Below are positions 2,130 to 52,460 of a DNA stretch of 64,000 nt, in pieces. The notes beneath the pieces are model-generated. The model ran no database searches. It worked only from the letters and a program-made list of their open reading frames with translations, and had not been told where the DNA came from. The DNA lies in the NCBI GenBank assembly GCA_030704615.1, contig CM060733.1, forward strand, positions 45,136,001 to 45,200,000. The letters are read 5' to 3'. The position numbers and the translations under genes were made by a program. The number at the start of each line of letters is the position of its first letter. Within the stretch, counting starts at the first letter, position 1. The DNA is from Takakia lepidozioides. Lineage: Eukaryota > Plantae > Bryophyta.

Positions 2130-2785
2130 CTCTCTGTCCGCTCTGCGCTCAGTGGGGAGATGCCATCGCTGAGCTCACAAGGGGAGTTTCGCACGTCCGA
2201 CGGATAATCAGCTCGTCCCGCCTTCATTCGTCCATATCTCGCCAGAGTGGAGTCGTTCTTAATAGCATGTGTTACTTTGTATCTCTGTCTTTTCTTTTTT
2301 CTTTTTTAAATAAAAGGCGTTGGCCATTTCTCTGTCTCCTTTTCAAAAAATGAAAAATGAAATAAAATACAATAAAATTCTGGCTATTCCATGGTTAGAG
2401 ATGTTTGACATGGCATGAGTGGAAGTTTAGTTAAACAAGTGATCTAGGGCCAGTGACCATTGTCAACAATCATACAACAATAACTTTGTGGGGGGAAGAA
2501 AACTCAGTCCATGACTCAGCCTTGATTTATTTAAATGAAATGGCCGACATACAAGACAAAAAAAGACTTTCGATGTTTTCGGCTAGCTACACTTCTGTGA
2601 CTAGGCAATCTTGCAGCCTTGAAGGGTCTGTTATGCAGTCCATCCTAGTCCTTCGACTGGAAATCATGGATAACCATGACCACTTGCCTATGCCATAGTT
2701 TCTAACCGAGGAGAATGGTACTATGGATATTTAGTAACGGGCAATAAACCTCATTACCATAACCAGTACTTGCACGCGTCACAAC

Positions 2786-5194
2786 TTATGGAGGAGGCAC
2801 ACCGGGAAATCCTAGACTGCCACCACTAGGAAAACCGGCACCGGGAAATCCTAGACTCCCACCACTAGGAAAACCGGCACCGGGAAATCCTAGACTCCCA
2901 CCACTGGGAAAACCGGCACCTGGAAATCCTGGATTGCCACCACTAGGGAAACCGACACCTGGAAATCCTGGACTACCACCACTAGGGAAACCGGCACCTG
3001 GAAATCCTGGACTGCCACCGCCGGGAAACAAACCGGGACCACCTCCTGTAGCGGGTCCGAAAGGTCCAAAACTTCCAAACGGAGAAGGATGGAATGGATG
3101 TTTAGCATCAAAATACTTCAGATTACCATACCCACTTGCCGATGCCCCAGCTTGTGGAGGAGGTACACCGGGAAATCCTAGACTGCCACCACTGGGAAAA
3201 CCGGCACCTGGAAATCCTGGACTGCCACCACTAGGGAAACCGGCACCTGGAAATCCTGGACTGCCACCCCCGGGAAACAAACCGGGACCACCTCCTGCAG
3301 CGGGTCCGAAAGGTCCAAAACTTCCAAACGGAGAAGGATGGAATGGATGTTTAGCATCGAAGTACTTCAGATTACCATACCCACTTGTCGATGCCACAAC
3401 TTGTAGAGGAGGTACACCGGGAAATCCTAGACTGCCACCACTCGGAAAACCGGCACCGGGAAATCCTAGACTGCCACCACTGGGAAAACTGGCACCTGGA
3501 AATCCTGGACTGCCACCGCCGGGAAACAAACCGGGACCACCTCCTGCAGCGGGTCCAAAACTTCCAAACGGAGAAGGATGGAATGGATGTTTAGCATCGA
3601 AGTACTTCAGATTACCATACCCACTTGCCGATGCCACAGCTTCTGGAGGAGGTACACCGGGAAATCCTAGACTGCCACCACTGGGAAAACCGGCACCGGG
3701 AAATCCTAGACTGCCACCACTGGGAAAACCGGCACCTGGAAATCCTGGACTGCCACCACTAGGGAAACCGGCACCTGGAAATCCTGGACTGCCACCCCCG
3801 GGAAACAAACCGGGACCACCTCCTGCAGCGGGTCCGAAAGGTCCAAAACTTCCAAACGGAGAAGGATGGAATGGATGTTTAGCATCGAAGTACTTCAGAT
3901 TACCATACCCACTTGTCGATGCCACAACTTGTAGAGGAGGTACACCGGGAAATCCTAGACTGCCACCACTGGGAAAACCGGCACCGGGAAATCCTAGACT
4001 CCCACCACTGGGAAAACCGGCACCTGGAAATCCTGGACTGCCACCACTGGGAAAACCGGCACCTGGAAATCCTGGACTGCCACCACTGAGAAAACCACCG
4101 GGAAATCCTGGATTGCCACCGCCGGGAAACAAACCGGGACCACCTCCTGCAGCGGGTCCGAAAGGTCCAAAACTTCCAAACGGAGAAGGATGGAATGGAT
4201 GTTTAGCATTGAAGTACTTCAGATTACCATACCCACTTGCCGATGCCACAGCTTCTGGAGGAGGTACACCGGGAAATCCTAGACTGCCACCACTGGGAAA
4301 ACCGGCACCTGGAAATCCTGGACTGCCACCACTGGGAAAACCACCGGGAAATCCTGGACTGCCACTGCCGGGAAACAAACCGGGACCACCTCCTGCAGCG
4401 GGTCCAAAAGGTCCAAAACTTCCAAACGGAGAAGGATGGAATGGATGTTTAGCGTCAAAGTACTTCAGATTACCATAACCACTTGCCCATGCCACAGCTT
4501 CTGGAGGAGGAGGAGGCCCACCAGGAAATCCTGGACCGCCACCACCGGGAAATGAAAAGGGATCACCTCTTGGACCGCCGGGTCCAAACGGTCCAAAACC
4601 TTTAAACGGAGGAGGACGGTCCGGACGTTTTTCACTACTATTGAGATCATTCCCACTAGGTAGTTCCATTGAATGACCTTGCTTGTGTCCTCCGATATCA
4701 TCTCCATTTGGAAGGTTTCCTCCGACATAAGGATGTAGAGCCGCATCCATTTCTCCACCTCCATCAGGAATGCCTTCATCGCTTGGATTTCTACTCTGAG
4801 ACCCATCACCATCGGGCCCTAGAGGACTTGCTAGGGCTCCAAGATCATGACCAGCAGGAGGCTTAAAACTACTCAAAGGACTAGGATCACTAGGTTTGTT
4901 GTCGAGGTCCAAATTACCAAGCACTACACCCTGTGAATCATGCTTGTTCCCAACACCTTCACTTTCACTCTCCAAATCGAAAGGACGAGCTTTACTACTA
5001 GTGTCACCCACCACTACACTCCCAGAATCATGCTTGTTCCCAATCCCTACACTTCCACTCTCCAAATCGTAAGGACGAGCTTTACTATCAACAATACCAG
5101 TACCAACTCTACGATAATCAGCTTGCACACTCCCTACTAGAAAAAACACAAACAAGAGGGAAGGCACCATACGAATCTGTTGCATAGTCTTCAT
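2786..5194 (-). CDS. Secreted Gly/Pro/Phe-rich repetitive protein (~802 aa, intronless), function unknown
   Basis: Uninterrupted ORF with ATG at 5194 (the track start at 5203 is TTG). Hydrophobic signal peptide (SLLFVFFLVGSVQA), six copies of SGYGNLKYF[D/N]AKHPFHPSPFGSFGP separated by GFPG/GGS repeats, and TATATAAA about 55 bp upstream. Confidence 0.8.
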   Translation of the reverse strand: MKTMQQIRMVPSLLFVFFLVGSVQADYRRVGTGIVDSKARPYDLESGSVGIGNKHDSGSVVVGDTSSKARPFDLESESEGVGNKHDSQGVVLGNLDLDNKPSDPSPLSSFKPPAGHDLGALASPLGPDGDGSQSRNPSDEGIPDGGGEMDAALHPYVGGNLPNGDDIGGHKQGHSMELPSGNDLNSSEKRPDRPPPFKGFGPFGPGGPRGDPFSFPGGGGPGFPGGPPPPPEAVAWASGYGNLKYFDAKHPFHPSPFGSFGPFGPAAGGGPGLFPGSGSPGFPGGFPSGGSPGFPGAGFPSGGSLGFPGVPPPEAVASASGYGNLKYFNAKHPFHPSPFGSFGPFGPAAGGGPGLFPGGGNPGFPGGFLSGGSPGFPGAGFPSGGSPGFPGAGFPSGGSLGFPGAGFPSGGSLGFPGVPPLQVVASTSGYGNLKYFDAKHPFHPSPFGSFGPFGPAAGGGPGLFPGGGSPGFPGAGFPSGGSPGFPGAGFPSGGSLGFPGAGFPSGGSLGFPGVPPPEAVASASGYGNLKYFDAKHPFHPSPFGSFGPAAGGGPGLFPGGGSPGFPGASFPSGGSLGFPGAGFPSGGSLGFPGVPPLQVVASTSGYGNLKYFDAKHPFHPSPFGSFGPFGPAAGGGPGLFPGGGSPGFPGAGFPSGGSPGFPGAGFPSGGSLGFPGVPPPQAGASASGYGNLKYFDAKHPFHPSPFGSFGPFGPATGGGPGLFPGGGSPGFPGAGFPSGGSPGFPGVGFPSGGNPGFPGAGFPSGGSLGFPGAGFPSGGSLGFPGAGFPSGGSLGFPGVPPP
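2790..4545. repeat. Hierarchical coding tandem repeat (39-bp subunits inside six ~240-325-bp units)
   Basis: ttcagattaccata recurs at about 3117, 3367, 3607, 3895, 4219 and 4465; ggaaatcct(g/a)gactgccacc subunits occur throughout. Confidence 0.95.
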
Positions 5195-6832: not shown

Positions 6833-9442
6833 TGAGTGACCCACAGAAAGGACACTGGGTGGATTGGGAACTTGGGCCTCCAGAAAGCAAGCACCATTGA
6901 AGCTGCAACAGGGATCCACATGGTGATGGTGCAGTGATGGTGACAAACTCCAAATGCACTGGTTTTGTGTTGCAGGTACACACAAAGTCTTAATGCCAAT
7001 GTGTGCCTCTCCCCATCAATGTACTTCTCTCTCACAACAACCCAATCAAATCTTCACCCTGCCCCCACAGTGGTTAGAGCACTGCAGCTCTGTTGCCTGT
7101 AATCATCCCTTCAAAGTTCAAAACTTCAAATCCATTTGCATCCTGTGGGAACTTCTGTGGTCCAGACGGTGACTCCTGCCCAAGCAAGTGACTCCCTCGT
7201 CCATATGAATTTCTGGGATGTGAGAAATAGATAGAGAGAGAGTGATGCATGTGCTCATATTCTTTCTACAGAAGAGGCTCAGACATCTCTCCTTGTATCG
7301 ATTGAAACGTAGTTGATGGCGCTGGGCAATACAGGTTTGGATGATGCTCATAGGAGGAGGCCCCCCATCATTTTGGCTGGTATGTTAGGCCAACCTTGCT
7401 TGCTGGAAACCTTCCTTTCTGTCACTGCCAATCATCAGCCCAAAAGTTGAAGGTCCAATCTATCTACCTCTAGGAACTGTGGCCAGCATACTAGGAACAA
7501 CCACCACCCTTGTGTGGCATTCTAACATTTTGGCCTCAAATTGGGAAATGAGTTGCTATGGACTAAATTGGCTTTTCAAAAAGTAGCTTTGTGTATATCT
7601 TACCCTGGAGGATACTGCATGCATCGTCACAAGGTAATCTAATGCTCCTTCTTCCCAAGAATATTTTGTTTAAAGGGGAGAAGAGGGAGCGCCACTGATT
7701 AGTATGAGGGATGAAGCAAGGGGTGTACTTGTTGATGATTCCCTATGTTTTGATATCAGCAAGTGTTTGGTAAAAATATTGGCAACCTATTGACTGGGCT
7801 CAGGAGTGCGGAAGAATGAAGCATTCCTGCCTCACCTTCAACCTGCAAGAGATTGAGAAGTCAGTTCCACTTCTCAGAAGGTCTTACCTTCTTATACTGG
7901 CAATTAATGAAAATAGTCGCATAGACCACGAACAAGGAGCCACTTTATCCACAGGGCTTGTAATTTGGTCCTGATTATTTGAAGTTGGGGCAGCCTGGAG
8001 ATGCCCTGGGCAACTTGACCATGGCATTGCAAAAGCTCAAGTTGGGCTGAGTGGTGCCATGTTTGTTCTGGTAATTAATTACTACTTTGCTCTCCTGTGC
8101 TCACCATCTTAGTAAGGGAACAATCACATCACCTCTTTCCAAAATTGGGGCAGCATGTGCTTCACTTTTCGGACAGGGAAAGTCTACTCCAGAACAAAGG
8201 GGCTGCCCCCTCCTATCTAACTCTTAACTCTCCACTGTTGGAGACAATCTATCCTGCCCACATATTGGCACCATAATGCTTCCCTGAGTTCTTGCACATG
8301 CAGGAAATTCAATGTCATTCTTGGTAGATTGGTGAGCACAAACCATCGCATGAAACCATAATCTTGTTTTGGATACACGTCTTTTAAAATACTTCCCGGT
8401 GTTGGATTTGATATTATGCATATGTGAGAGTATGGGACTCTTGAATATCAAAGAGGGATGTTGCAAACCCAGTGTTGGTTTCATAATTTCGGTGAATCAG
8501 GTGTCTGTTTTGTGTGAGGTTGCTTCAAATTCTCTTGCTCACCACAAAGGTACAACACCTGGATCTTTAGCTGCTACCAACGATTGATGTAGTCATCAAC
8601 ATAACCAGTGCACAACTACTCATACTGTCTCTCGAACTGCAGTCAAATTCTTCCAAGAAGGATTCTGATGCACATGAAGACCTGACCAATCAAGAAATTT
8701 ATCATTCCGCAATCTCTACCTAGAAATGTTTCTCCATGATCCCGACACTGCCTCAATCAAAGTTTCACTGCATTCTTCATGAAGGTGGAATTTTGTGAGT
8801 TACATGAGAGGCAGGAGAGAGGCCACAAAGGTAATGGTGGAGTGGACACTGAATGCACTGAGTTGGAGCTCAAATGATAAAAGAAACATCTTGACACAAT
8901 TTATCTACCTAGCATTTCGTCATACCCTTTCAATGTCCTTTCACTAACAGTCAAGAGGGAGAGGGCCCAGATATAACACATGCACATGGTCGCTTTACTG
9001 CAATTAGACGCACAATGTTAGTTAAATGAGACAGGATGACACAGATAAGAAGGATTAGCCCCCCATCCTAATAAACATTACCCCTTACCTCAAAGTCTCC
9101 TCAAAGGAGAGGGTATTGCTATGACACCTTTGGCCGTGGCAGAAGCTCAACAGTCTCTAGCACAAAGGGCTATCATAGACAAAAACTCTGTAGAGAGATT
9201 AAGGGCCACAATATGCAGATGATTTCTCCACATAGTTGGCCCAAACCCCCAATTTTAAAGCTATGTACAAAATGGACGTATTTTTTTCTGTGTTCTAAGA
9301 TCCCAACATGATCAGGATGAAGACTTCCCCCAACTCACAGCCCACTGAGGACATGTTTTTCTGGATAACCTAGAAACTGAGGTTTCTGATATAGAGATCT
9401 CTTTTAGAGGGGAAGAGCAAGACTACTGCTTCAAGTCACCAG

Positions 9443-12400
9443 CTAGTTTGGCTTCTCCACCTCTGGCCCAACGTTGTAAGCAGGCTTCTCGTCAATGTCA
9501 GTCGGCGGAATGATCTGTTTCCAAAACCAGTGTTCGCGCCACACGTAGACCATCTCCTCAATTGGCACACCCTTAGTCTCAGGGAGGAACAAATAAATGA
9601 ATATGGTCATTATCACAACAAACCCAGAAAAGAAAAAGAAAATCCCATACTTGAAGTGACATAGTATGGTCAGAAAGGCCTGGGCAACAACGAATGTGAA
9701 GAAAAGGTTTACTGCCACATTGATAGTCTGGCCAGCCGACCGTGTCTCCAAGGGGAAAATCTCACTGGGGACCAACCATCCTAGAGGACCCCACGACCAG
9801 GCAAAGGCTGCCACATAGATGCAGACGAGTGCTACCACTGCAGAAGATTCCCCCTTAGTCAATGTCTTGGTCCCTCCAAATTTGAGTGCCAGGATAACTC
9901 CAATAATGACCTGCATGCATGCATAGGCCACGGTTGCTGTTACTTCTCTCGCTCCCTTCTCTCTCTCGCTCAATCTCGGTTTCTCTACTTTGTCCCATGA
10001 GTCAATTCCTTCTTCTCTCCCGCCTCGAGTCTGCAGTTGCTATTTTGACGAGTGCTCCACCATCAGCAGTAACAGTGCTGATCACACTTGGCTTGCAAGC
10101 TTACAGATGGCCCTGCCAATCCGTCTTATGACTAAATGGCACATCCATCCGTTCTACATAGGATGTTCTCGTGACTAATCCAACAATGCACGAAAGCTCT
10201 ACGCAGTGTGCCATTCTACACTATCCGCTATGAAATTGCAGGACCACCAACACTGTGACCAGATTACCCATCAGGAGAAGCTCTTCAGCTCCCTTACACT
10301 AACCACAGCCTTTCCAGAACAGTGACAACCAAACTCATTCCCAAAACAGAAAGCAATGTATTAAGAGCTGACCTGACAAATGAACATCTGGACTCCACCC
10401 TCCAAAAACAATTTCCTGCGTCCCCACCGATCCGCTGTGGCAAGAGAAACAAAAGTGGAAACACAAAACACCGCACCCGTAATGACTGATGAGTAGAGAG
10501 AGGCATTGGATCCAAATCCAATGGTGCTGAAGAGGACAGGAGCGTAGAAATTGATAGCATTGATTCCTGTCATCTGCTGGAAGAATGGGATTGCTATAGC
10601 CATCACCAGTTGCGGACGGTTTCGTTTCTGAAGTATGTTGCGGAAAGGGTGTTTTACCTGCAGACCGATTAATTCCTGAAAGGGTCAGATACGTCATAGA
10701 GAAGAATCTGCAGAAGGATAAGGTTTACCTCATTTTGTATCCTTTTTACTGAAATCAATGGCACAGCATAGGGATCTTATGTGCCTCCTTCTCATTGACC
10801 TGTTCATGGTACTTCTGCTCAAGGGAAGTTGAGAGAGAAAGAAATTTCTGATTATCTATATTTTCAGGTAGTTCTCTACCAAGTCCTCGGCCCAGAGGTA
10901 GCATACTGGGAGGGTGCAACCAGGGTTTCTGCCTTACTACTGGCTGACTGGAGTACAAATTGCACATCCATTCAGAAATAGTTGAAGCCCTTGTTCAATG
11001 TTGCCTTCTAGCTATCGAACTAAGAGTCCTCGTACAGTGGCAGAGGTATTATCACTTATGGTGCAATGAATTGTGTAATTCCGACACACAGGTGACCATG
11101 GGCATGGGCCTGGCCTTGGGATTCAAAACTTGATGTGTATCAAACAACCAGATCTGACACTGGCATTGACATCAGCCTGCAAACCACTTTCAGGGCATCT
11201 TCACTCAAAGGTGAAAATCCAGCAAGCTACAGATATCCATTGACAAACCACTTCAGCAACCAAAATCACAGCATGCTCACCTGGTTTGCAGTTGCACTAG
11301 CCTCCTGCATGTCCTCAAATTCTGCGGTCACATTGTCGACACCACGAATCTTAACAAGAGTAGCACGCCCTTTCTCCATATGCCCCCGCTCAATCAGGCT
11401 GTTGGGCGTCTCCGGACAGAAAAGACCCCCAAGTGTAAGACAGATGGCAGGTACAGCAGCCCCTCCAAGAGAGAGACGCCAACCCCATGGTTGCAGCTTG
11501 CTAGTGCCATAGTTGATAATATTAGCACAAAGAATGCCAAAAGTTGTGGCAAGCTGAAACATGATGTTGAGCCTTCCTCGCATATTTGCAGGGGCCATCT
11601 CAGACAAGTAGAGAGGCACAGCCTGCCCCACAAACATCAAATGCCCATCACACACCTAATATGGTATTGAGATCTCTCTGCTGCTTTAAAGATTTTCGAA
11701 TATGCCAAATTTCACATCATACATTGGTGCTCGGCATGGACAAAGAACTCCAAGAATCAAACCAAGATGGAGAGTCATCTAGAAAGCTGCCAGACCAAAG
11801 AATGCCAAAGTTGATGGCGGTGTTCAATGCAACCAGGGAAGAGGATTGGGAAATAATGCCGAAAGCAGAACAACTCTAAAATGCATGGAATTCAACTCCG
11901 GTCAATCCCTTTCACAACATAATGAACCAGTTTAGGGAGACAAAGCACGTGCAGAAGGCTCCCGAGAGCTTGTGTTCTTAAAGTCAGCAACACAGTGATC
12001 GGGAAGGAAGAGTTCGTTTCAGAAAATATCAGACCTGGTTGCCGAACCCAATTCCAAAACCAAGCAGGATTCGGCCTATGATGAGCATAGCCAAGTCTTG
12101 GGCAGCCGCATTCAGAATCGCACCACAAAGGAAGCTCAGGCCCCCACAAAGCATAGTGATCTTGCGGCCCAGAATGCGTGTCGTGTAGGAGGCCCCAAAG
12201 CTGGCCACCATACCCGCAAGATAGAGAGAAGACGTGAAGAGTTGCAGGGCTTGGTTGTCATACTTGCAGTAGTCAGTCTCTTTTGCGGCCTCCTTCTTGC
12301 GGTATACAGTCGGAAAAAACTTTTGCAGGAAGTCACTCATAGACGTCACCCCACCTTCCAATCCGTCGGTTAGAGCTCAGCACAAGAAGCAGCAGACTGT

Positions 12401-13157
12401 CTATATACATTTATGCTCAAACTGAACTGTCTCAAACGCTCGCATGAAGACAAATTGGTCTTCTGAGCACTGGGAGCTGGCAAGCCGGCATGCATCGGCT
12501 GAGCAAGCGAGACAAACCTGTGCGAAGGCACAAAAGAAACTACATTCAAACATCTCGTCAGTCGTGTTGCGAAAGGCTTCTTTCGCCCAAATCCCCCAGA
12601 CAATGCTCACATGGAAGTCCACCAAGATAGGTGCACGCACACACTCTCGGATGTGCAACACTTCGCCCTTTGACTATGTGAGCAGATATGTCCACTCACC
12701 CAGCTAGCTGTTCGCTGTTACGCCTACTTTGGGATGACTAACAATCCTCGGCCACCCCACCCGATATCTCTCCGTCCCCGATCCACGAAAGGGAAATTTC
12801 CCACGAAGATATGACAAGCAACCGATCTCTCTCTATGCCCAAAATGCTCTGAGATTGGTGTGCCTCAGTGGAACAATTTCCCAAAACGTCCTTTGCCGTG
12901 ATGGCTAGCAACTCCTGAGCTAAAACTAGCTTCCTTAGAAAACTCTACAAACCTTTCACCTCCTCAGTCTACTCAGAAAAGAGAAGGAAACACGGCGAAA
13001 GTGAGGAATGGGGTGGTGCCATACCGGAAATACCAATATCATAGCCAAAGAGGAGACCGCCACTGGCGGCCACAACGCAGGCCAGGGCCACATACATTGT
13101 CATGCGTCCTTCATACTGCCGCTTCGGCCCCACTGCTATTATATGGCCCCCAGCCAT
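9443..13157 (-). CDS. STP: Sugar transport protein (STP/MST family hexose:H+ symporter), copy A, 515 aa
   Basis: Exons 13157-13025, 12354-12035, 11622-11281, 10657-10373 and 9910-9443 (1548 nt, GT-AG, in frame). Motifs [70 protein letters not shown]. Confidence 0.95.
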
Positions 13158-14402
13158 CTCTTCCCCTTTCTGCCCCTCCCTCTCTACGGGATCTAAGCCT
13201 CTCCGTCAGAAATGTTTTAGAAATCTCTGTCCATGAATCTCTCTTTCTCGGTGATCAGGACCTCCTTCCCGCTGTCGATGTGTTGTCTTCCTTACAATAA
13301 TGTACATGCCAACAAGTTCTCTCTCTCTTCCCCAAGAACTGCCTCCACAAGACTTCTCTCTCCCCGATGAACGGCCTCCGCAGTCTCTCAGCCTGAGGAA
13401 TTGCACTCCACCAAAATCCACCAACTGGTCTCTAGACACAGCAATTCCAAGTGATAGGCTTCTCTGACACTGAAACGGATCTCAAATTCCACCAAACAGG
13501 CAACAAACAACCCGAAGGCCTCTCAGTCCTTCGCCTCAAGTCAGAGGGACGAGGGGGGAAGGTGCTGTAAGCTTGTTACAGAAGCACGGTTCACCAAAGC
13601 TTTCCCATCCCAACACACAGAAGCGCAGAGAGAAAGAGAGCAGAGCGACTTGGATGTCCGAATAACCGTAATAGCGCAACCTCCCAGCTGAGCTCCTCTC
13701 CCTCAGCTCAGGACAACTCTGAGTTGCGAGGGCCGCAGGTTAGATAGTAAAGAGAGAGAGAGAGACTCGGGCAGGCAGCCGACGAAGTGCTGTCATGTAC
13801 GAGTCTAAACGCGCACGAGAGGGAGAGAGAGACAGCGCGGTACCTGCCTCTCACGCTCAGCAAGCCACAATATTTACCACCGCCCCCCCCCACTCCTTAT
13901 ATTTTCTCCACCTTGTTTTTTCCTTAATACGAAAGGGGACAGCGGCCCTTTGACCACCTTTTTGTGCTGCCCGAGTGGACCTACTTCTCTGCCCCAACAT
14001 ACTCCAATGGCCCCCCGCCCCTCCTCGTCAGGGAGAGGGCCCACTAATGCGCACGTGTGTTTTGTTTTGGTCCATCCTTGTTGACGACCGGAAGTGGACT
14101 TTGACCGTCAACCAAAGGCATGCAGATAGCCTTCGTACCTGTGTTGTACACATACAGCACTGTAAATACGTAAATACACAGGGGTTCACATGTGCACGGT
14201 TGGGAGAATAACAAGGTGGCAGGGTAAGAAAAGTGGCTATATAGCAGGTGGCTCTTTAGAACAGGTCTACGTAGGCTATGGCAGGCGCCTGATATTTAAC
14301 TACTGGCGTTTTCTGGCTAATTTTTCGATTTTTACCCCCATAATTTCTTTGTACAAGTAGCTGACCCATTTTCCAGGCGGCGATCTTTTACCAGGAAAAA
14401 AC

Positions 14403-19729: not shown

Positions 19730-19935
19730 TGTTAACGGAGAATGTTGTGTCGTGCGCATACATATCGCTACACAACTATATCGCTGTCCAAAACCACACA
19801 ACACATGTACACACCACACACTAGTATACCACTAGTCCACCACTAGTCCAGCCACTAGTCCAACCACTAGGCTACAACTAGTCAGTCACTAGGCTGCCAC
19901 TATGCTGCCCACTATGGCAGTCACTAGTCCACACA
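19730..19935 (-). repeat. Putative 3' LTR (TG...ACA) with internal ccactag repeats; PPT at 19936-19946
   Basis: Minus strand reads AGGGGGGCGAT|TGTGTGGACTAG...CCGTTAACA. No matching second copy seen in the window. Confidence 0.5.
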
Positions 19936-20204
19936 ATCGCCCCCCTAGCTGGTGCTTAGGTCCCTCTAAGTCCAGGTAGCCACAAGATGTGATAGTGACC
20001 ATAGTCTCACTAAGTCCTCCACCACTATCCCTACTACACTCAAACTCGATAGATCAAGAGGCCGGGTGCAAGAGTTGCCCCATCGTTAGTCGCCATCTTG
20101 CAACCTATGAACTTGAGCTTGGGATCTCATGTATTGACTCCTATGAGCTTGGCCTCCCATGTCTTGTTAGCTGCCTCCAGTCATATCCACTGCCACTATC
20201 CCAA

Positions 20205-20339
20205 GCAGTGTGGACATAACCAATCTCCGTCAGGAACCTTCTCAAGAGGTGGTGTCAAGCATCCCATATGCCAACCCCTTGAGCATCGATCACACACCAG
20301 CATGGTGGCTGCCCCTTTGGCAGACCCACAGAGCATGCA
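20205..20339 (-). pseudogene. PHD finger (C4HC3) at the integrase C-terminus of the Gypsy pol
   Basis: CMLC...MLVCDRCSRGWHMGCLTPPLEKVPDGDWLCPHC, all eight Zn ligands present. Confidence 0.93.
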
Positions 20340-20549
20340 CATCAAACCTGCAGGTACCACTGCCAAGTTTGGGTCAACTCTGCCATCGACATTGGGAAGG
20401 TGACATGGCGCACAATTACGCACATGGTCCTTCCAAGTCATGCCATCCCGACCCTCCAAGATCAGGACCCCTGAGGGCAACACCTCTCGAACCCTCAGAA
20501 TAACACGCCCTGCAGTAACATCTAGAGTCGTAGGAGCAGTCTGCTGCAA

Positions 20550-21474
20550 ATAAACATAGTCACTAGGGCTAAACCTCCGAACCCCAGGACGATATCATCC
20601 ACCACGTATAGTGGCATACCTCAACGTATCACGGTGCAATGGCAAGGTTCTCAAAAGCCATGGGCATGACTTTCTTGAACAACTCTGCACGCTGATCACA
20701 TGCACGTACCCACACGTCCGGATCGTCAAGGTTAAGGACTTGAGCAGTGTCCCTACGAACGGCTGCAGGCAAATCCGGCTCTCGGTCAAAGAGAAGGAAA
20801 TATGGTGAGAAGGAGGCAAATGATGCTTGTTTGCTGAACCTGTAGCCCCTGGCTAACCAAGGAACCTGAAGATCCCAATCTCCTAGGTGTCCCTTCTGCA
20901 AGCCATACTTGCGCAAACCCCTCTTCACCGTCTGAACAACTCTCTCTGCTAAGCCATCGGCCTCAGCATGATCCCGAGAAGTGGTGCGGTGGTCTATCAA
21001 GGCTTTATCACACAAAGCCTGAAACTCCCCCAAGAACTCTCTCCCTTGGTCCGTGAGTACCTCAGCTGGAGCACAAATCGGCTAAGCACACGATCCAAGA
21101 ATGCATACGCAGCCCCCTCACTAGCTTTGTCAGGCAATGGAACCAACTCAATCCACTTGGAGAAAGTGCTCCACCATCACCAACACATATCTGTGGTGGT
21201 GCATAGTCAGTGGCAACGGTCCTGCGAAGTCAAGACTCCACCTGTAGCCCAATCCCATGATTGGTAAATGATGCAACTGTGGTGTAGGGGTGTTGAATGA
21301 AGCACGCACCCTGTCACACACCATGTACCTAGCCACGAATTGTTGCACCTCTGTATGCATACCACGCCACCAATACTGCCCTTGCAGTAATCTGTGAGTG
21401 CGTCGCACTCCAAAATGCCCCAACTCCTCATGGGCATGCCGCACTAACCGCACGCTGTGTGGGGTGAGGCACAA
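20550..21474 (-). pseudogene. Integrase (HHCC and DDE core), frameshifted
   Basis: HEELGHFG...WW...VC, WSLDFAGP, TDQGREF and DGLAERVVQT spread over several frames. Confidence 0.9.
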
Positions 21475-23164
21475 TCCTCACCCGACCATCCTCCCACACT
21501 CGAAGTAGGTGTATCCCCTCCCACTTGAACCTCTTGGCTCGTTGCAGGATCCGATCCCTCTCCCTGGCAGTCACAGTGGCTGTCGTGTCTCCCGTGCGGA
21601 GGTAGTCCAACACAGCCGAATCCTCATGTATATCTCTGGCACCACCTGGCTCATCACTAGCCTCAGGGTCCTCAGACACTCCGTCTACAGTCATCCTTGT
21701 TGTAGGTCCAACCTGACCTCCCGATGCCAAGATACACAAAAATGCAGATGCGTGCCATCCCGGCACCATCTCCTCGTCCGTCTCACCATGCCACCGAGCT
21801 CCAATGTCATCATGCTGGCTCATGCATGGATTGCGACTCAATCCATCCGCATCCCAATTGACCAAACCCGGTCGATGCACAACCTGAAAGTCATACTCCT
21901 GGAGTATGAGTGCCCACCGTACAAGCTTCCCCGTAAGCTTGTCTGACTCCATCAACCACTTGAGTGGCTGGTGATCCGTGACAATGGTGAAAAGATTGCC
22001 GTATAGATAGCACCTGAAGTGTGCCTCGGCCCACACTGCAGCTAAGCACTCTCCCTCATATGAGCTGTACTTAGCCTCTGCAGCATTGTTCGAGCGGCTA
22101 GCATAAGCCATTACGAACTCTCTTCCCTCATCATCCACCTGTGTGAGCACCGCTCCAAGCCCCAGCATGCTCCAATCCGTATGCAGTTGAAAGGGACGCC
22201 CCCTGATAGGTCGTCTCAGGATAGGCGCCGAGGTCAACCTCGCCTTGAGCTCTTGAAAAGCTTGTTCCTGCTCATCTTCCCACTGCCACTCCTGGTCCAC
22301 CTTGGTCAACTTGGTTAGAGCCTTTGCAATGGTACTAAATCCCTTGACAAACCGTCTATAATAGTTTGCCAACCCCATGAAAGCTCGAACTCGGCTCACA
22401 TCCGTGGGGCGTGGAATTTGTGCAATGGCCTCTGCCTTAGTCTGTTGTACCCCCAATCCTCCAGGATATATCATGTGACCCAGATACTCAATCTGGGTGT
22501 GGAAAAACTTGCACTTCCCCGGATGCAACTTCAATCCGTGCGCTCTCAAGCGCTCCAATACCACCTGAAGGTGTCTCTCATGCTCCTCCATCGTAACACT
22601 AAAGATGATGATGTCATCTATGTAGCACCGAGCAAAGTCCACCCCTGCTAGAATCCTATCCATGACTCTCTGAAACTTTGCAGGAGCATTCTTAAGCCCA
22701 AATGGTAAGAACCGCCACTGATATAGGCAATCCTTGCCGTGCTTATTGATCCCCCAGAATGTCGTCTTTTGCTTGTCCGCCTCCTTGATTGGCAACTGGT
22801 GATATCCGGATCGTAAATCCAAAGTGCTAAAGGCTTTAGCATGCCCGATGGCATCAAAGATCTCCTCTGGTGTTGGCATGGCATACTTATCGGACTTGGT
22901 CTGACGATTTACAGGCCGGTAATCACCGCACATACGTCTCTCCGTCCAATTGCCATAGACATCCTTCTTGGCTGGCATCACTGTGGCTGAAGCATACTCT
23001 CCACCAGAGAGCTCCACCAAACCTGCCTCCCAGAGATCTTGAGTCCTCATCTGAATCAAAGACCTCTCCATGTCACTGTATCTATAGGGTCTCCAAAAGA
23101 TTGGCATGTCAGTGGCCAACTCAATACGGATCTCTTGACCCTTCAGTGCTCCCAAGTCCTTCAA
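21428..23164 (-). pseudogene. Reverse transcriptase and RNase H of the Gypsy pol
   Basis: RMCGDYR, LDLRSGYHQ, LPFGLKNAP, CYIDDII, FQLHTDWS, EGECLA, VTDHQPL, DADGLSR. Confidence 0.97.
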
Positions 23165-23629
23165 ACTGAAGGCAAAGCAATTCCTGTAAGCCCTCAGGAA
23201 CCGCCGTATACGTCGTCTCTCTCCTCCGGTGACAATGGGTCCAATGTCAGGCTCCCAATTGTCCTCCGTAACTGCAACCTTAAGTCCAGTGGGCTTAGAG
23301 GTAGAGGACGCGTCCAGTGGTTGCTATGTTGCATCCTCTTGAGCAGTACTCCCTGCCTGCTCAGTCAATGACAAGGCCTCATCCTGCCCCATCATCTCAT
23401 CCTTGAGGACCTCCTCAACCCGAGAAGAATCCCCAACCTCATCCATCACAGCCGCCTTGGCTGCCAACTCCCTCTGAACCTCGAGCACCTCCCACGTGTG
23501 CCATGGATGCATGCACCCCGTGGTCCTCACATGCTCGCCCCCACTCACTGCCTGTACCGTCTCGGTAGGCAGAGAGACCATTGAGGGAAGTGTACTCCGC
23601 ACTCTGCGTTGCTCAGCCAGAGCCAAGCT

Positions 23630-24575
23630 GATAATCCAGGTCAAGCAATTAAGTTCCATTGCTTGCCCCAACACTTGACGACGTGATGCCTCAGAAAGAG
23701 ATGACACCGCCGTGGTACCAGTGGTAAAACCCATTGCCCGCTCACGCTCGTCAGCATTAGGCTCCACTAACTGCTGCAACTGAGCATCCCACAGGAGGCC
23801 AGGTCCACTATCCCGGAAAGCATGCGATCCTGGGAAGCTGAGCAGTGTAGGTAATGCTGCTCGTGGTTGACCCACCTTGTTGACCACTGCCAAAGGCGAA
23901 CGGTCATCGTGTCTCACACGTTGAGACTGCCTCCCTGTGTCCAAAATGTTATCCACTGTGAGATGTGCTGGCCGTTACACCCCATCAAATGCACGCTTGA
24001 GCAGTGCGGGTGGCATCAAGTTAGTCCACCATAGCCGTGGACGATGAGCCCATGACCCCACTGTAGCTGCATCTAGCAACACTGCTGACCCAAACCACGA
24101 CCGGACTTGATGCACACTGGCCATCACCTTGGCCCGAGAATCGCCCATCAGTGGCACATTCTCCAAGATGTATGCTAGAGATACAGCTTGATGAAGCTGC
24201 AAGTGGCGCAAAACCCGCACCATCTCCCAAAACAGACCCGACCTCGAGTCTCGCAATCCATTGCCATGCCCGCTGATGAATGCCCTTGGCAGGGCCAACC
24301 TGCCACTACTAGATCAATGGAGCCAACCCGCTCCAAATCCTGCGCCCCCAGCAACGAAATGTCTGCTGGCAAGGCCTGCTGATATCCACGAATTGCAGAC
24401 ACCGACAACAACTCAGGGTACCGCTGCACCAACTGAGCAACATGGCGAAGTGAAACGCGTCGTGCAGTCTCATCCCTCTCCACATACAGGTAACGCCGAA
24501 CTCGTACACCTGCTTGTAACACAGCAGCCAATCCGGTGCTGATCCCGCCAAACAAGTCCAGAAGACAAATGTCTT
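23630..24575 (-). pseudogene. C5-cytosine DNA methyltransferase domain (DNMT3-like) inside retrotransposon pol
   Basis: Motif I LDLFGGISTG, II YVERD, IV DLVVAGWPCQG, VI YILENV, VIII AHRPRLWWTNL, IX ERERAMGF, X RRQVLGQAM. One frameshift near 24270 and one in-frame TAA at 23975-23977. Confidence 0.93.
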
Positions 24576-24949: not shown

Positions 24950-25330
24950 CGCCGGCCCACCCCTGACTGCCATGCAGGCCTATAAGAAGCTGACTCCTCC
25001 CAAAAATCCAGGGTGAAGCCCATGGGGTACAACACTGCCCCACCAACCAGGACATCGTATGAGACTGCGTCTGTCACAATGGCCTTGGCTCGCATCACTG
25101 AGCCATCTGTAGGGTGATCCGGCCGTAGTCTGATAGCCAACTCACGCCGTGTCATGCCCCGAGCCTGCTCCGATCCTCCCAGAGACGTCTGTATCTGGAA
25201 AGACAAGGCTCCATATCCGCCTCCGTGAGGCCCAAGCCTGCAATAGCAGCTCTGCCCAGCATCAATGGCTGAGCCCCGAGTCCAACAAGACCCGCAGTGG
25301 CCGGTACCTCTTGCCTGCCGGTCCACTCAA
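24950..25330 (-). pseudogene. Aspartic protease of the Gypsy pol (frameshifted)
   Basis: RVLLDSG(A) active-site motif near 25290 and YDVLVGG near 25050. Confidence 0.8.
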
Positions 25331-26049
25331 ACAGAAAATGCCATCCTGGTTGTCTAACATGACAACTCCAGGTGTCACCATGGCGCGCTCAATGGCTGGC
25401 CTAGCTGGCAGCTCCATCAACCTGGCAGCTGCAGCTTGCCATGGCGCCGCCGTGGCAGTCTTGACCCTCAAATCCGAGGATCCCTCCGGCACTACACCTC
25501 CACTATCTCCGCAGAAGATGAAGTAACCTCCCCACTCTCACAGAGTGTAGCTGCCAGCCTGAACACCTCAGCTGGTTTACCCCCGGCGTCGCAATCATGG
25601 TAGCCGAGAACAATGGAGCCTGGCACACAGATGTGGCCGCTCCTAGCAGCACACTAGCTGTCGTAGCCTTGGCAACACTAGGTAGTGGTGCTACCCGTGT
25701 AGCTCTCCCCAATGGCATAGTAACCTCCGCCTCGGTAACAGTCGGGCGAGAACTAGGTGCCATGGATGGCGTCGACACTGTCTCGCCAATGTGAATGACT
25801 GAGGAAGCCTAGCCTGACGGCTTGCCTCCCCACGCTGTGGATCCAACTCCACCTCTGCACCTCGTGGCTCAGGAACTCGTGCTGCTCCTCGAGTCACGGC
25901 TGCAGCAGACTCCACCTGCACTAGTGGTAGTGCTGCTCCACACATGAATCCCATGCCTCCCATATCTCCTCCCTCAGGAGCAGGAGGTGGACCATCCGGC
26001 CTTAGAGCCGGTACCACCTGAGCTGTAGCCATGGCAGCGAGCCTCTGCT

Positions 26050-27487: not shown

Positions 27488-28219
27488 CCGGTCATGAACA
27501 TGTCCCTAACCCCCTCTCCACAAGGTAACCGGGTAGAGAACCTGTTGCGGCTTATGGTTTGGAATACTAAGTTCCTAACATAGCCTACACCTGTACCTGC
27601 ATCCACCGCAAGCACTCCTATGGTTGGCTGGTCATCACCTCCAACCTCACACAGGAGAAACAATGATGGTCTGGCTGGTCATCACCCCAGCCTCACCATC
27701 GACAGCATGCTCTAGGACTGGCCGGTGATCAAATCCGGACCAATCACCTATAAAAACAAGCGCCCACACAAAACTAGCATGGCGCACAGTCAAGCATGCA
27801 GTATGGAGGGGATCCAAACACAAGAAATCAGAACGACAACTCCCCCACACCAAAAACAACTCCACGGTGTTGCTCCTGCAAGGACACCCAGCCCAAACCC
27901 GGACTGACTCTTGCCTCCACCTACGGAAAGGTCTTGGCCTAATGAGAGGGTGGAAACTACGAGGAAGAGAAGCTAAAGCAATGCCTAACCCCAGCATGCC
28001 CTCATCCCAACACTCTTCCTCTCCTCTCTTCCCTCACTTGCATGACCATGGGAATATCATGAAGATACTCCTCAAACCGCCCTCCACGAGCTTCAAAATT
28101 CGGCCTTCCAGACCACATGCCAGTCCTTAGGCAGTCCACCAGTGCCTCCACGAGTCAGCACAGGCCGTCCACAGGTCAACACGGGCCACCACAGACCAGC
28201 ACAGGCCCACACAGCTCAC

Positions 28220-28995
28220 TGGTCACAGCCGTCACAGTCCCACATGCCACTGGGCACAGCCTGTCACAGCCCGTCACAGCCCCAAAGGCCTCAGGCACGG
28301 CCCATCACAGCCCGTCACAGCCCCAAAGGCCTCAGGCACGGCCTGTCACAGCCCCTCACAGCCCATCACAGCCCCAAAGGCCATGGGCATAGCCTGTCAC
28401 AGCCCCTCACAGCCCGTCACAGCCCCACAGGCCACTGGGCACAGCCTGTCACAGCCCTGCACAGCCCGTCACAGCCCCACAGGCCACTGGGCACAGCCTG
28501 TCACAGCCCCGCACAGCCCGTCACAGCCCCACACGCCACCGGGCACAGCCTGTCACAGCCCCACACAGCCCGTCACAGCCCCATAGGCCATTGGGCACAG
28601 CCTGTCACAGCCCCGCACAGCCCGTCACAGCTCGCCACAGCCTGTCACAGCCCGTCACAGCCCCACACGCCACAGGGCACAACCCGCCACAGCCCGTCAC
28701 AGCCCCAAAGGCCTCAGGCACGGCCTGTCACAGCCCCTCACAGCCCGTCACAGCCCCAAAGGCCTCAGGCACGGCCTGTCACAGCCCCTCACAGCCCATC
28801 ACAGCCTCAAAGGCCTCAGGCACGGCCTGTCACAGCCCCTCACAGCCCGTCACAGCCTCAAAGGCCTCAAGCACGGCCTGTCACAGCCCCAAAGGCCATG
28901 GGCACAGCCTGTCACAGCCCCTCACAGCCCGTCACGGCCCCACAGGCCACTGGGCACAGCCTGTCACAGCCTTGCACAGCCCGTCACAGCCCCAT
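28220..28995. repeat. Tandem array of GTCACAGCCC-based 10-mers in higher-order ~46-57-bp units
   Basis: Dozens of (c/g)tcacagcc(c) copies interspersed with aaaggcctcaggcacggc and ggccactgggcac spacers. Confidence 0.95.
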
Positions 28996-32061: not shown

Positions 32062-32358
32062 ACCAACAGTCAGTAGCTCAGTTGGTTAGTGCACTGAGTG
32101 CCACCCCAATGATTCTGGGGTCAAATCTTGCTACTTGACAGGTGTGGTATACTCTTCTCCCCCTTCCCTGGGCGGTGTCCCATTTCTCAGCCTCCATGGC
32201 ACGGTTATTGTGAAAGAGGTTATTTTCTCCTCTCACTATCATGGGGCCTGATGTGAGCTGTTGCCTCTTGGAATACCTTCTCTCATGGACGAGGTAGTAC
32301 AAGAAGCGATCAAAAAGCTCCTTGAGCCTCCCAGGTGTTTCCCCTTAAAAAAAAAAAA
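32062..32358 (+). mobile_element. tRNA-derived SINE, copy 1
   Basis: A box TAGCTCAGTTGG (32074), B-box-like GGGTCAAATCT (32118), poly(A) tail 32347-32358, and TSD aaaatctgg (32051-59 and 32355-63). Second copy at 52222. Confidence 0.85.
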
Positions 32359-35005: not shown

Positions 35006-38000
35006 TTCTCCACAGTTGGCGACAATCTGTCCTGCCCACATATGGGCACCATAATGCTTCCCTGAGTTTTTGCACATGCAGGAAAATGTCATCATTGGTA
35101 GATTGGTGAGCACAAACCATCGCATGAAACCATAATCTTGTTTCCGATACGTCTTTTAATATACTTCCCGGTGTCAGATTTGTGAGATTAGGCTTATGGG
35201 ACTATTGAAGTTCAAGGAGGGATGTTGCAAACCCAGTGTTGGTTTCATAACTTTGGTGAATCATCAGGTCTCTGTTTTGTGTGAGGTTGCTTCAAATTCT
35301 CTTGCTCACCTCAAAGGTACAACAAAGGCACAACATTCCAACCCACATGGGTGAAATGAATTGAAAGTTGGGGCATAACGGAAGGATTGATTAATACAGC
35401 TGGGGTTTATCATGCAGATTTTACCACCGCGGAGATTGAACTATTGGTTGGTGCAGGGGCGGTGCCTGTTGGTCTTGGCATCTGTTGCAAAACATATGGA
35501 GTAGAAGAAATCCAATAGAAACCCATTATCTTGTAATTTGGACTCACTACTAATTCATCCTTTCCTCGCTCATTGCTTATTACATCTCTCTTCCATCCAG
35601 AGTGGGTGAATTTTCGTGATGACCATTGGCGCTCTCTTGGGTTACTTCGGCTTACATCAGATTGCTTATCATTGGTGCATATTGGGGTATAGTAGGGATG
35701 TGTAGTATTATACTTCATTTACTCCCATAACTGACTCTCTGCAACTAACTTTCACGCAGTACTGTGATATTTAGCCAATGGAAAATGGGAAGAAGAAATA
35801 AACGAAGGACCTTTGTGATCCTATGGATGTGGCACTGCATTGGAAATGCGCATGTTTAGCAGTGATGGGGGCCAAAGATGACGAAGCCACATGACCCAAC
35901 CATTCCGTTTGTACCAGCCAATGGAGGTTCTAGGCCTGGAGTCTTTAGCTGCTACCTACGATTGATGTAGTCATTAACATAACCAGTGCACACCTACTCA
36001 TAATGTCTCTCAAACTTGGAAGACTTTTACTGCAGACTTCTGCAAGAAGGGTTTTGATGCACATGAAGACTTGGACAAGCAACAAATCTATCATTCCCTG
36101 TTGAGATGTTTCTCCATGATCCCAAAAATGCCTGAATCAAAGTGTCACCGCATTCTTCATGGATCTGCATTTTTGTGAGTTACTTGATAGGCAGGATGGA
36201 GACCAAAAAGGTAAGTGTGGAGTGGACACTTCATGCACCGGATTGGAGCTCAAATGTTAAAAGAAACATCTTGATACCATTCATCTATTTTACATTTCGC
36301 CATATCCTTTCAATGTCCTTTCACTAACAGTCAAGAGGGAGAGGGCCCAGATAGGTGTATAACACACTCAGAGAGTTGGCTTTACTGCAATTAGGTGCAC
36401 AAAGAGTGCAACAATGTATACGATAGTTAAATGAGACAGGATGACGCAGATAAGAAGGATTGGCCCCCCATCGTATAAACCTCACCCCTTACCTCAAAGT
36501 CTCGTCAGAGGCGAGAGGGTGTTTTGCTATGACAACTTTGGCCGTGGCAGAAGCTTAATAGTCCCTAGCACAAAGGGCCATCACAGACAAAAGGAACTCT
36601 ATAAAGAGATAAAAGGGCCACAATATGCAGATGTTTTCTCCACATGGTTGGCCCATCCCACCAATTTTGAAGATATGTACAAAATGACCGCAGGTTTTTG
36701 TGTTCTAAGTTCCCAACATGATCAGGAAGAAGACTTTCCTCAACTCTGAAGCTTCACAGCCCACTGAGGACATGTTTTCTAGATAACCTAAAAACTGAGG
36801 TTTTTGATGTAGCCTGAATCTCTTTTAAAGGGGAAGAGCAAGACTACTGCTTCAAGTCAACGGCTATTTTGGCTTCTCCACATCTGGCCCAACGCTGTAA
36901 GCAGGCTTCTCGTCAATGTCAGTCGGAGGAATGATCCGTTTCCAAAACCAGTGTGCGCGCCACACATAGACCATCTCCTCAATTGGCACACCCTTGGTCT
37001 CAGGGAGGAACAAATAAATGAATATGGTCATTATCACAACAAACCCAGAAAAGAAAAGGAAAATCCCATACTTGAAGTGACATAGTATGGTCAGAAAGGC
37101 CTGGGCAATAATAAATGTGAACAAAAGGTTTACAGCCACCGTTATAGCCTGGCCAGCCGACCGTGTCTCCAAGGGGAAAATCTCACTGGGGACCAACCAT
37201 CCTAGAGGACCCCACGACCATGCAAAGGCTGCCACATAGATGCAGATGAGTGCTAACACTGCAGAAGATTCCCCCTTTGTAAGTGTCTTGTTCCCTCCAA
37301 ATTTGAGTGCCAGGATAATTGCAACAATAATCTGCATGCAGGCATAGGCCACGGTTGCTGTTACTTCTCTCGCTTCCTCCTCTCTCTTGCTCAATCTTGG
37401 TTTTCTACTTTGTCCCAATCACTCGAGCAATAGTTTCTATTCTTGGCTCTGGTTTTGTCTCCTCTCTCATGTTTATTCCATTTTGTCCCATAAGCTCTAT
37501 GAGTTTTCTGCGGACGTTATAAAGCACCAATTCATTTCTCTCCCGCCTCGAGTCCCCATCTGCAGACTTTGACAGGAGTTGCTATTTTGACGAGTGCTCC
37601 ACCATTAGCAGTAACACTGCTGGTCACACTTGGCTTGCAAGCTTACAGATGGCCCTGCCAATCCGTCCTATCACTAAATGGCACATCCATCCGTTTCACA
37701 TGGGATGTTCTCGTGACAAATCCAACAATGCCCAAAGCTCTACGCAGTGTGCCATTCTACACTAGCCACTATGAGATTGCAGGACCACCAACTTGAAATG
37801 AAACAGTACGACCAGATTACCCATCAAGAGAAGCTCTTTCAGCTCCCTCAACACTAACCAAAGCCTTCCAGAAACAACTCAGTCCCAAAACAGAAAGCAA
37901 TGTATTAAAAGCTGACCTGACAGATAAACATCTGGACTCCACCCTGCAAAAACAATTTCCTGCGTCCCCACCGATCCACTGTGGCAAGAGAAACAGTAGT

Positions 38001-41000: not shown

Positions 41001-41370
41001 AATAAGTAATACTCACCACCCCACTGCCCCCTTACTTATATTTTCTCCACCTTTATCTGCTGCCCAATGGACCCACGTCTCTGCCCCAAAAATACTCCAA
41101 TTTCTCTTCAGGGAGAGAGGGCCACTCATGAGGACCGGAAGTCCACTGACCCTCCACCGAGGCCTGCCATAGATAGCGTTGCGTATTCCCTACCGGACTT
41201 TTGTGCACCTTATCTCAATGTTACATCATCATTCATCAACAAACGTGGGCGGAGGGAGAGCACATCTACAAGTCAGTTTGACTGAGTGGAAAGGCAGTGG
41301 CTTGTGATGGGTAAGGCCGGACAAACACTAGATCCGAAGTTAGTCAAAGAGTGAGACTGTAGGACTCTAC
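35006..41370. repeat. Segmental duplication unit B
   Basis: Collinear with about 8228-16360. Confidence 0.9.
36864..40567 (-). CDS. STP: Sugar transport protein (STP/MST family), copy B, 515 aa
   Basis: Exons 40567-40435, 39783-39464, 39155-38814, 38201-37917 and 37331-36864, the same sizes as copy A, with canonical motifs intact. Confidence 0.96.
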
Positions 41371-52221: not shown

Positions 52222-52460
52222 ACCAACAGTCAGTAGGTGAGTTGGTTAGTGCACCGAGTGCCACCCAGATGATTCTAGGGTCAAATCCTGCTACTTGATG
52301 GGTGTGGTATACTCTTCTCCCCCTTCCGTTGGGTTGTGTCCCATTTCTACCCCTTCATGGCGAGGTTATTGTGAAAGAGGTTATTTTTCTCCTCTCACTA
52401 TAAATGGGCTTGAGTTGTGAGCTATCGCTCGAGGTGTTTCCCTATTTTATTTTATTTTTT
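52222..52460 (+). mobile_element. tRNA-derived SINE, copy 2 (internal deletion, T-rich tail)
   Basis: Collinear with 32062-32346; TSD aaactcta(acc) at 52214 and 52461. Confidence 0.85.

Follow-up and report, generated by a model that had tools for sequence, protein, structure and literature searches.

We found that a decayed Ty3/Gypsy retrotransposon in Takakia lepidozioides carries a PHD finger at the C-terminus of its integrase and a DNMT3-like cytosine methyltransferase ahead of an in-frame amber stop codon, and that this stop codon is conserved in related elements. The element, which belongs to the streptophyte Gypsy-DNMT3 kind, lies in a stretch of 64,000 nucleotides (the window). Our reading, to which we give a probability of about 60%, is that the window holds a dead copy of an element in which the PHD finger likely tethers the integrase to the free N-terminus of histone H3, and in which the methyltransferase is encoded upstream of a stop codon that is likely read through in part. 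The new point is the conserved amber stop between the DNA-methylation writer and the putative histone reader. The pairing of the two domains is ordinary within the family, and both PHD-bearing retrotransposons and reader-plus-writer elements are already known.

According to profiles built from relatives, the domains lie on the minus strand in the order Gag, protease, DNMT3-like domain, reverse transcriptase (RT), RNase H, integrase, barrel, and PHD finger, which contains the Ty3/Gypsy order Gag-PR-RT-RH-IN. The features are as follows.

28144..28994, no strand: tandem array with periods of 10, 41, and 52 bp, upstream of Gag
27709..27745, minus: non-coding motif upstream of Gag, common to the related locus L082
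26200..27280, minus: Gag, frameshifted, with the capsid region (27280-26537) and two CCHC knuckles
24970..25348, minus: aspartic protease region (LLDSG), frameshifted
23624..24570, minus: DNMT3-like C5 methyltransferase with LDLFGG, GWPCQ, ENV, HRPR, and C-terminal motifs
23318..23326, minus: in-frame TAG (23326-23324) followed by CAA CCA (CAR-YYA), a candidate programmed readthrough site
21809..23215, minus: RT and RNase H, within the open frame 23323-21431
20635..21460, minus: HHCC finger and D,D-E core of the integrase, interrupted by frameshifts and stops
20403..20558, minus: SH3/Tudor-like beta barrel, predicted fold of the integrase C-terminal domain (AlphaFold model, fold match)
20339-20205, minus: PHD finger (C4HC3) at the integrase C-terminus (Pfam PF00628, sequence matches, conservation)
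20060..20084, minus: non-coding motif 3' of the PHD finger, conserved in loci L003, L082, and L083
19938..19949, minus: polypurine-tract-like run GCTAGGGGGGCG, conserved in L003, L082, and L083
19748..19937, minus: short terminal segment ending with CACGACA (at 19748), common to relatives, likely the right end

Several frameshifts and stops interrupt the stretch from Gag to the methyltransferase and also the integrase; thus, the copy in the window is dead. The DNMT3-like domain itself is interrupted by a single frameshift (near 24270) and a single stop (at 23977). Copies of the family are very numerous in the host, as 7,663 contigs of sequencing run X1 match 601 bases. The tandem array is probably inside the 5' region of the element, and a weak match to a terminal segment of L082 (segment B) was obtained at 30641-30531 (score 44, compared with a best score of 35 among 30 shuffles). 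In the 64-kb window, which has the polypurine tract and one A-like terminal segment, neither a further copy of the 3' terminal segment nor a target-site duplication or a left end was found. L083 ends with polypurine tract-A-B-A, and L082 has A-GC-B. In L082 (positions 7046-7063 of that locus), the right end CACGACA and a segment starting with TGTCACG are two bases apart; L083 also has this junction, plus another right end. These end structures agree with the split (DIRS-like) terminal repeats reported in a figure legend for the Klebsormidium element KnitGypsy-Dnmt3 (PMC5890265).

Other repeats were also seen in the window. A 5.7-kb direct repeat (8229-13914 and 35007-41053) was considered as a possible LTR pair and rejected, since both copies encode sugar transporters; it is a tandem gene pair (PF00083), 77-91% alike in blocks, with the retroelement between the two genes. 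Two copies (32062-32259 and 52222-52423, 87% alike) of an element of about 200 bases that starts with a tRNA-like A box probably represent a SINE. An unrelated second RT fragment (PF00078; 59610-63092, plus strand), with long frames on both strands nearby, belongs to another decayed retroelement. A complex tandem array at 2710-4552, with periods of 39 and about 249 bases, is open on both strands (571 and 805 codons) and gave no Pfam match. No tRNA gene was found in the window.

The methyltransferase domain is intronless and unpermuted and contains the catalytic motifs, as expected for a Gypsy-DNMT3 element. When the family profile was compared with solved or known enzymes, DNMT3A (E 3e-19) scored better than DRM (3e-10) and HaeIII (4e-9); the best solved relatives were DNMT3A, DNMT3C, and DNMT3B, ahead of DRM and HaeIII. 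The Cys pattern of motif IV is present in 33 of the 40 family domains and an ENV-type motif in 37. The catalytic Cys, ENV, and RxR are conserved in the family, and GWPCQ is conserved in the subclade of the window, whereas in a distant clade another residue, mostly Glu, stands in place of the Pro that precedes the catalytic Cys.

The PHD finger, CMLCGSAKGAATMLVCDRCSRGWHMGCLTPPLEKVPDGDWLCPHC (20339-20205), closes the minus-strand frame 20594-20199, which is followed by the stop codon TAG at 20198-20196. All eight C4HC3 ligands are present, and PF00628 scored 44.1 bits (E 2e-11; cut-off 24), so that the intact finger noticed in the first-pass annotation is real. The interval that it had given to the finger was too wide, as 20549-20340 is mostly barrel and linker. 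Intactness is likewise limited to the PHD codons, since the integrase upstream is broken and the methyltransferase contains a frameshift and a stop. The PHD finger does occupy the position at which chromoviruses carry a chromodomain, as had been claimed; no chromodomain is present at the integrase C-terminus, the frame ends two codons after the finger, and the RT did not group with the one chromodomain-bearing row in our tree (P0215). Searches with the barrel-PHD frame gave 45 protein matches, 27 of which are annotated with an integrase core and a PHD finger. The best solved sequence matches of the finger (among 84 sequences with E up to 0.001) were CHD4, PHD1 of KDM5B and KDM5A, PHF12, and ATXR5. 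In an AlphaFold model of the frame (16-row alignment, mean pLDDT 73), a predicted five-strand SH3/Tudor-like barrel (residues 13-64) precedes the finger. This barrel resembles Tudor, KOW, and SH3 folds and matched the C-terminal domain of foamy-virus integrase (Z 6.6, rmsd 3.0, 66 aligned residues). The best fold match of the PHD part was the ATXR5 PHD in complex with H3 (Z 7.6, rmsd 1.8, 52 aligned residues), and the ORC1b PHD solved with H3 gave Z 6.4; Z values of 6.4-7.6 are middling.

To consider what the finger could read, we aligned it and the PHD fingers of 30 relatives with a complete terminal PHD to KDM5A PHD1, for which the roles of residues (A1 pocket, R2-binding Asp, and K4 contacts) are described in the available text of bioRxiv 10.1101/715474. 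The residue two positions before the His is Gly in the window and in all 30 relatives; thus, there is no aromatic cage for H3K4me3, whose readers have Trp at this position. This Gly and the absence of an acidic residue ahead of the first Cys had both been noticed before and were found again here. The A1-pocket equivalents of L309, P331, G333, and W335 are kept, as in PHD fingers of the unmodified-H3 class (Pro, Gly, and Trp in 29, 26, and 28 of the 30 relatives, respectively), and the R2-binding Asp equivalent to D312 is kept in 29. The acidic K4 contacts of KDM5A (N-terminal Asp, acidic wall, and second R2 Asp) are missing: at the positions of D292, E305, D306, and D315, the window has Ala, Ala, Ala, and Ser, respectively, and an acidic residue occurs there in at most 3, 2, 1, and 1 of the 30 relatives. 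In 26 of the 30, Arg or Lys immediately precedes the first Cys; among distant long-tailed relatives, six of nine have Asp three residues before it. The loss of acidic residues is not decay, because it is family-wide and because dN/dS of the PHD finger (about 0.10 between L082 and L083, and about 0.22 between the window and L003) indicates purifying selection.

The substitutions D292A and E305A each weaken H3 binding of KDM5A about six-fold (bioRxiv 10.1101/715474), and neutralisation of the acidic wall abolishes binding by BAZ2A (PMC5415848). The ATXR5 PHD also has no acidic wall in the aligned segment, yet it was solved with H3; thus, binding of the element's finger to H3 stays likely. Since the acidic K4 contacts are missing family-wide, selectivity for unmethylated K4 cannot be read from the sequence. 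The earlier placement in the KDM5-PHD1/BAZ class therefore holds for the unmodified-H3 type, with A1 and R2 contacts kept; discrimination of K4me0 is uncertain, as the equivalents of E305, D306, and D315 are missing in addition to the N-terminal Asp. The finger shares the C4HC3 fold, the A1 pocket, the R2-binding Asp, and the absence of a cage Trp with ATXR5, ORC1b, KDM5A/B PHD1, BAZ2A, and UHRF1, and differs from this set in having neither an acidic wall nor an N-terminal Asp and in being attached to an integrase. Together, the alignments support a conserved finger of the unmodified-H3 type that likely grips histone H3 tails.

Relatives were selected by RT alone to avoid bias. Pfam was scanned on 40 of the 150 RT matches (single-stretch, about 42% identity or more), and the family profiles were run on all of them. 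The RT tree was a quick search without bootstrap on 60 rows (61 were given; P0057 was dropped because of its short RT match), in which 49 rows formed one clade with SH-aLRT 100. This clade contains 36 RT-selected rows, of which 19 are uninformative, without a full integrase. Ten of the 17 with a full integrase have both the methyltransferase and the PHD finger in one open frame, in two different positions, and in another four the PHD finger is present and the protein starts at RT. P0205, which is open from Gag to its end, has the PHD finger and no DNMT3-like domain; P0098 and P0126 have the methyltransferase without a PHD finger, and P0282, the longer member of the P0126 cluster, has the methyltransferase and the barrel followed by a non-PHD tail. 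The two domains co-occur in 10 of the 12 informative RT-selected relatives (P0282 standing for the P0126 cluster), and the pairing is old and usual, not obligatory.

The relatives occur in liverworts, moss, and streptophyte algae; the nearest named ones are from Marchantia, Calypogeia, and Sphagnum, followed by Coleochaete and Closterium; none of the proteins obtained carried the label Klebsormidium. Some subclades have the methyltransferase ahead of RT, a subclade of 25 rows has it between RNase H and integrase, and the tree of the methyltransferase separates the same groups as the RT tree. In the subclade of the window, the methyltransferase is in the same phase as RT with an in-frame stop between them; in the sister subclades the two are in one frame. 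Since these sister subclades (P0029/P0276, P0126/P0282, P0204, and the clade with the methyltransferase between RNase H and integrase) are fully fused, a methyltransferase at the Gag level is not general. In a metagenome scan, three of 80 loci were close, and the other 77, distant Ty3/Gypsy loci many of which are on short contigs, gave no methyltransferase or PHD match; viral collections yielded nothing useful. L082 (G001:C201) and L083 are plant-type retrotransposon contigs in an assembly titled uncultured cyanobacterium, likely contamination, and they are the source of a 'cyanobacterial' reverse transcriptase record.

Other arrangements were observed among more distant elements. In P0209 and P0218, outside the clade, the PHD finger lies between RNase H and integrase, and P0218 has in addition a Dam domain before RT. 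In distant relatives (P0036, P0038-P0040, P0135, P0174, P0177, P0205, P0207, and others), the C-terminal 210 residues behind the PHD finger form a conserved domain with the motifs DPFxGxG and V(I/V)TSPP, whose profile matches 17 of the collected proteins and not the window. It gave weak matches to the Pfam D12 adenine-methyltransferase family (E 0.015-0.35) and no sequence match in PDB, and its nearest Atlas clusters consist of phage proteins; in some of these clusters, a minority of the proteins carry MTS or N6_Mtase. These distant relatives may be elements with two methyltransferases and a PHD finger.

The TAG at 23326-23324 is in phase with both the methyltransferase and RT. Its origin by decay was considered and rejected, because the codon is conserved at the same place in related loci. 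The junction is TAG CAA CCA in the window, TAG CAA CCC in L002 and L003, and TAG CAA TCA in L082; thus, TAG with the CAA-YC context occurs in three of four related loci, or in four of five junctions when the window is included. As L002 and L003 count as one lineage, the signal is present in three lineages. L001 has no TAG-CAA junction, and its 250 bases upstream are unrelated. In L082, whose RT region is about 67% identical to that of the window, the 6.6-kb frame that runs from Gag to the PHD finger contains no stop other than this TAG. The window and L082 match the TMV-type signal, an in-frame UAG followed by CAR-YYA, perfectly; L002 and L003 match five of its six bases (the last base is off). 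The flanking peptides are unrelated (EDAT*QPL, KVFA*QPM, and SATK*QSP), and CARYY follows only four of the other 914 stops in the compared stretches.

Proteins of the relatives also break at this place. Of 40 with a complete upstream methyltransferase, 26 end without RT, 19 of these at 55-84 residues past the methyltransferase; the 14 that continue into RT comprise nine proteins from sister subclades and five plant gene models in which the junction is skipped. Conversely, 38 of the 42 proteins with RT, integrase, and PHD start no more than 81 residues from RT. Contigs of sequencing runs showed 62 differences, and none of the 40 with the best support falls on the stop; in a spanning contig of run X12, for which 25 of 27 differences were listed, none was at the stop. 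No common RNA fold was found 3' of the stop in three sequences. An RT-integrase-PHD protein from a Coleochaete transcriptome (P0015) starts within the linker between the methyltransferase and RT and has no stop at the usual place, so that the boundary differs in that branch.

UAG-CAR-YYA is the TMV-type readthrough signal in plants, with readthrough of 32 and 11% in the TMV and BNYVV contexts, respectively (PMC2754532), and in-frame stops are known in SIRE1, Tca2, and MuLV (PMC2754532, PMC2194720). The junction shares with these systems a single in-frame stop between coding blocks and with the TMV type the CAR-YYA context. It differs from SIRE1, Tca2, and MuLV in that the stop follows the protease and the methyltransferase instead of separating gag from pol or pol from env. 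Judging from its sequence context, the amber stop likely allows occasional readthrough.

We then compared the element with known systems, using the accessible text of each source. Gypsy-DNMT3 elements were described in 2018 by de Mendoza et al. as KnitGypsy-Dnmt3 (PMC5890265), with which the element shares its Ty3/Gypsy nature, the streptophyte lineage, and an intronless DNMT3-like domain in the polyprotein region. In the window, a conserved stop follows this domain, which is outside the Pol frame. The main and supplementary text of that article mentions no PHD finger, land-plant members, or readthrough, and its Fig. 4c may show a PHD finger; our literature searches on Gypsy-DNMT3, which covered the text of openly available papers, found no report of a PHD finger or readthrough stop. 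PHD fingers in retrotransposons have been called widespread (PMC6673714, PMC8557442, bioRxiv 2021.11.30.470311). PHD-bearing Gypsy integrases in non-seed plants, mentioned in the first-pass annotation, were not found in print: the accessible text of a plant LTR survey (PMC6317226) does not contain 'PHD', and neither this text nor that of PMC12344493 describes a finger of the present type. The printed precedent is in Chlamydomonas, where Gypsy-7a_cRei and REM1 (PMC9940879) share with the element a Gypsy polyprotein with a PHD finger that has been proposed to bias the choice of insertion sites; insertions of Gypsy-7a show a 2.6-fold enrichment in intergenic DNA. No methyltransferase is listed for these elements in that text, and their PHD finger is named before the integrase, as in P0209 and P0218. 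The EpiLTRs of Cymbomonas and Euglena (bioRxiv 10.64898/2026.05.21.726589) likewise combine a chromatin reader and a DNA methyltransferase in one LTR element; they have a chromodomain, Dam, and a DNMT4-sister enzyme, and are stated to be distinct from Gypsy-DNMT3.

Several other explanations were weighed. The stop might be the true end of ORF1, with RT, integrase, and PHD expressed from a separate transcript, by re-initiation, or by splicing; in that case the separation of methyltransferase and PHD finger stands and readthrough falls. L002 and L003 do have an ATG two codons past the stop, in Candida Tca2 an internal promoter lies at the gag-pol stop and a reporter showed no readthrough of this similar stop (PMC2194720), and plant gene models splice across the junction. 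However, neither the window nor L082 has an ATG at that place, the frames are in phase at all four junctions, the CAA-YC context is held while the flanking peptides diverge, and the splices of the gene models differ from each other and look like artefacts of the predictor; we thus consider this explanation unlikely. We judge equally unlikely that the finger, in the subclade of the window, is no H3 reader but a structural or a protein- or nucleic-acid-binding appendage of the integrase barrel. The scarcity of acidic residues at the four K4-contact positions, the basic residue before the first Cys, and the Asp retained in the long-tailed relatives would fit such an appendage, whereas the near-invariant A1 pocket and R2-binding Asp, and the H3-bound structure of the similarly wall-less plant ATXR5 PHD, speak against it.

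The two remaining alternatives concern the methyltransferase. A role of the DNMT3-like domain in binding DNA, RNA, or SAM, with no methylation of the element's DNA, is quite improbable: the Klebsormidium domain showed no activity in yeast, a result its authors call inconclusive (PMC5890265), and the Pro ahead of the catalytic Cys is replaced in the distant clade, but the catalytic residues are conserved in the family, as is GWPCQ in the subclade of the window. Somewhat more improbable still is the proposal of the first-pass annotation, in which the PHD finger and the methyltransferase form a functional unit like the ADD and methyltransferase domains of DNMT3, the finger selecting H3K4me0 chromatin and the methyltransferase marking the new copy there. 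The element does carry both domains (at 20339-20205 and 24570-23624), they share one open frame in the ten relatives mentioned above, in either position of the methyltransferase, the nearest neighbours of the finger by sequence and fold are of the K4me0 class, and a readthrough product would carry both before processing. The ADD of DNMT3, however, adjoins its catalytic domain in one chain, whereas here about 1,100 codons and a conserved stop lie between the domains, relatives have either domain alone, and the K4-contacting acidic residues are absent in the subclade of the window; the analogy, which requires the finger to act on the methyltransferase, is therefore weak. Co-occurrence across related elements, which had been proposed as a test of this coupling, turned out to be usual, and independence was seen as well (PHD only in P0205, methyltransferase only in P0282 and P0098). 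The reader and the writer probably represent separate adaptations that are inherited jointly, as opposed to a single coupled module.

With an H3-tethered integrase and a methyltransferase upstream of a leaky stop, which is the reading that we prefer, the cycle of an intact element may be pictured as follows. Most ribosomes would stop after Gag, protease, and methyltransferase, and a minority would read through TAG-CAR-YYN and add RT, RNase H, integrase, and PHD. Proteolysis of polyproteins is established for Ty3/Gypsy elements, and the protease of the element would release the methyltransferase and the integrase-PHD as separate proteins. The methyltransferase would be packaged at the level of Gag and most likely methylate cDNA inside the particle or close to it. 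The integrase-PHD, made in small amounts, would bind A1 and R2 of H3, probably with low affinity and an uncertain dependence on K4 methylation, and the finger on the integrase tail would tether the integration complex to H3 tails, as proposed for Chlamydomonas Gypsy-7a.

Why retrotransposons encode their own cytosine methyltransferases has been called an open question, and de Mendoza et al. proposed methylation of cDNA for DIRS elements (discussion and text of PMC5890265). The position of the stop would make the methyltransferase abundant and packaged, which favours cDNA methylation over chromatin-guided marking after insertion. A wider scheme, which we put forward tentatively as a possibility, is that this green-lineage clade tunes its epigenetic toolkit by translation: in land plants, the leaky amber would load DNMT3 at capsid stoichiometry so that cDNA is pre-methylated, and the rare readthrough PHD would dock the integrase on H3, while algal branches would have moved the methyltransferase into Pol and added an amino-methyltransferase-like domain behind the PHD finger. 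As the pairing of PHD and methyltransferase is common in the family, it is less surprising than it appeared from one window. The position of the stop also explains why many gene models of liverworts and moss are mis-annotated as 'DNMT' and end past the methyltransferase, and, besides the chromodomain, the PHD finger would represent a second way in which chromatin could guide integration in plants.
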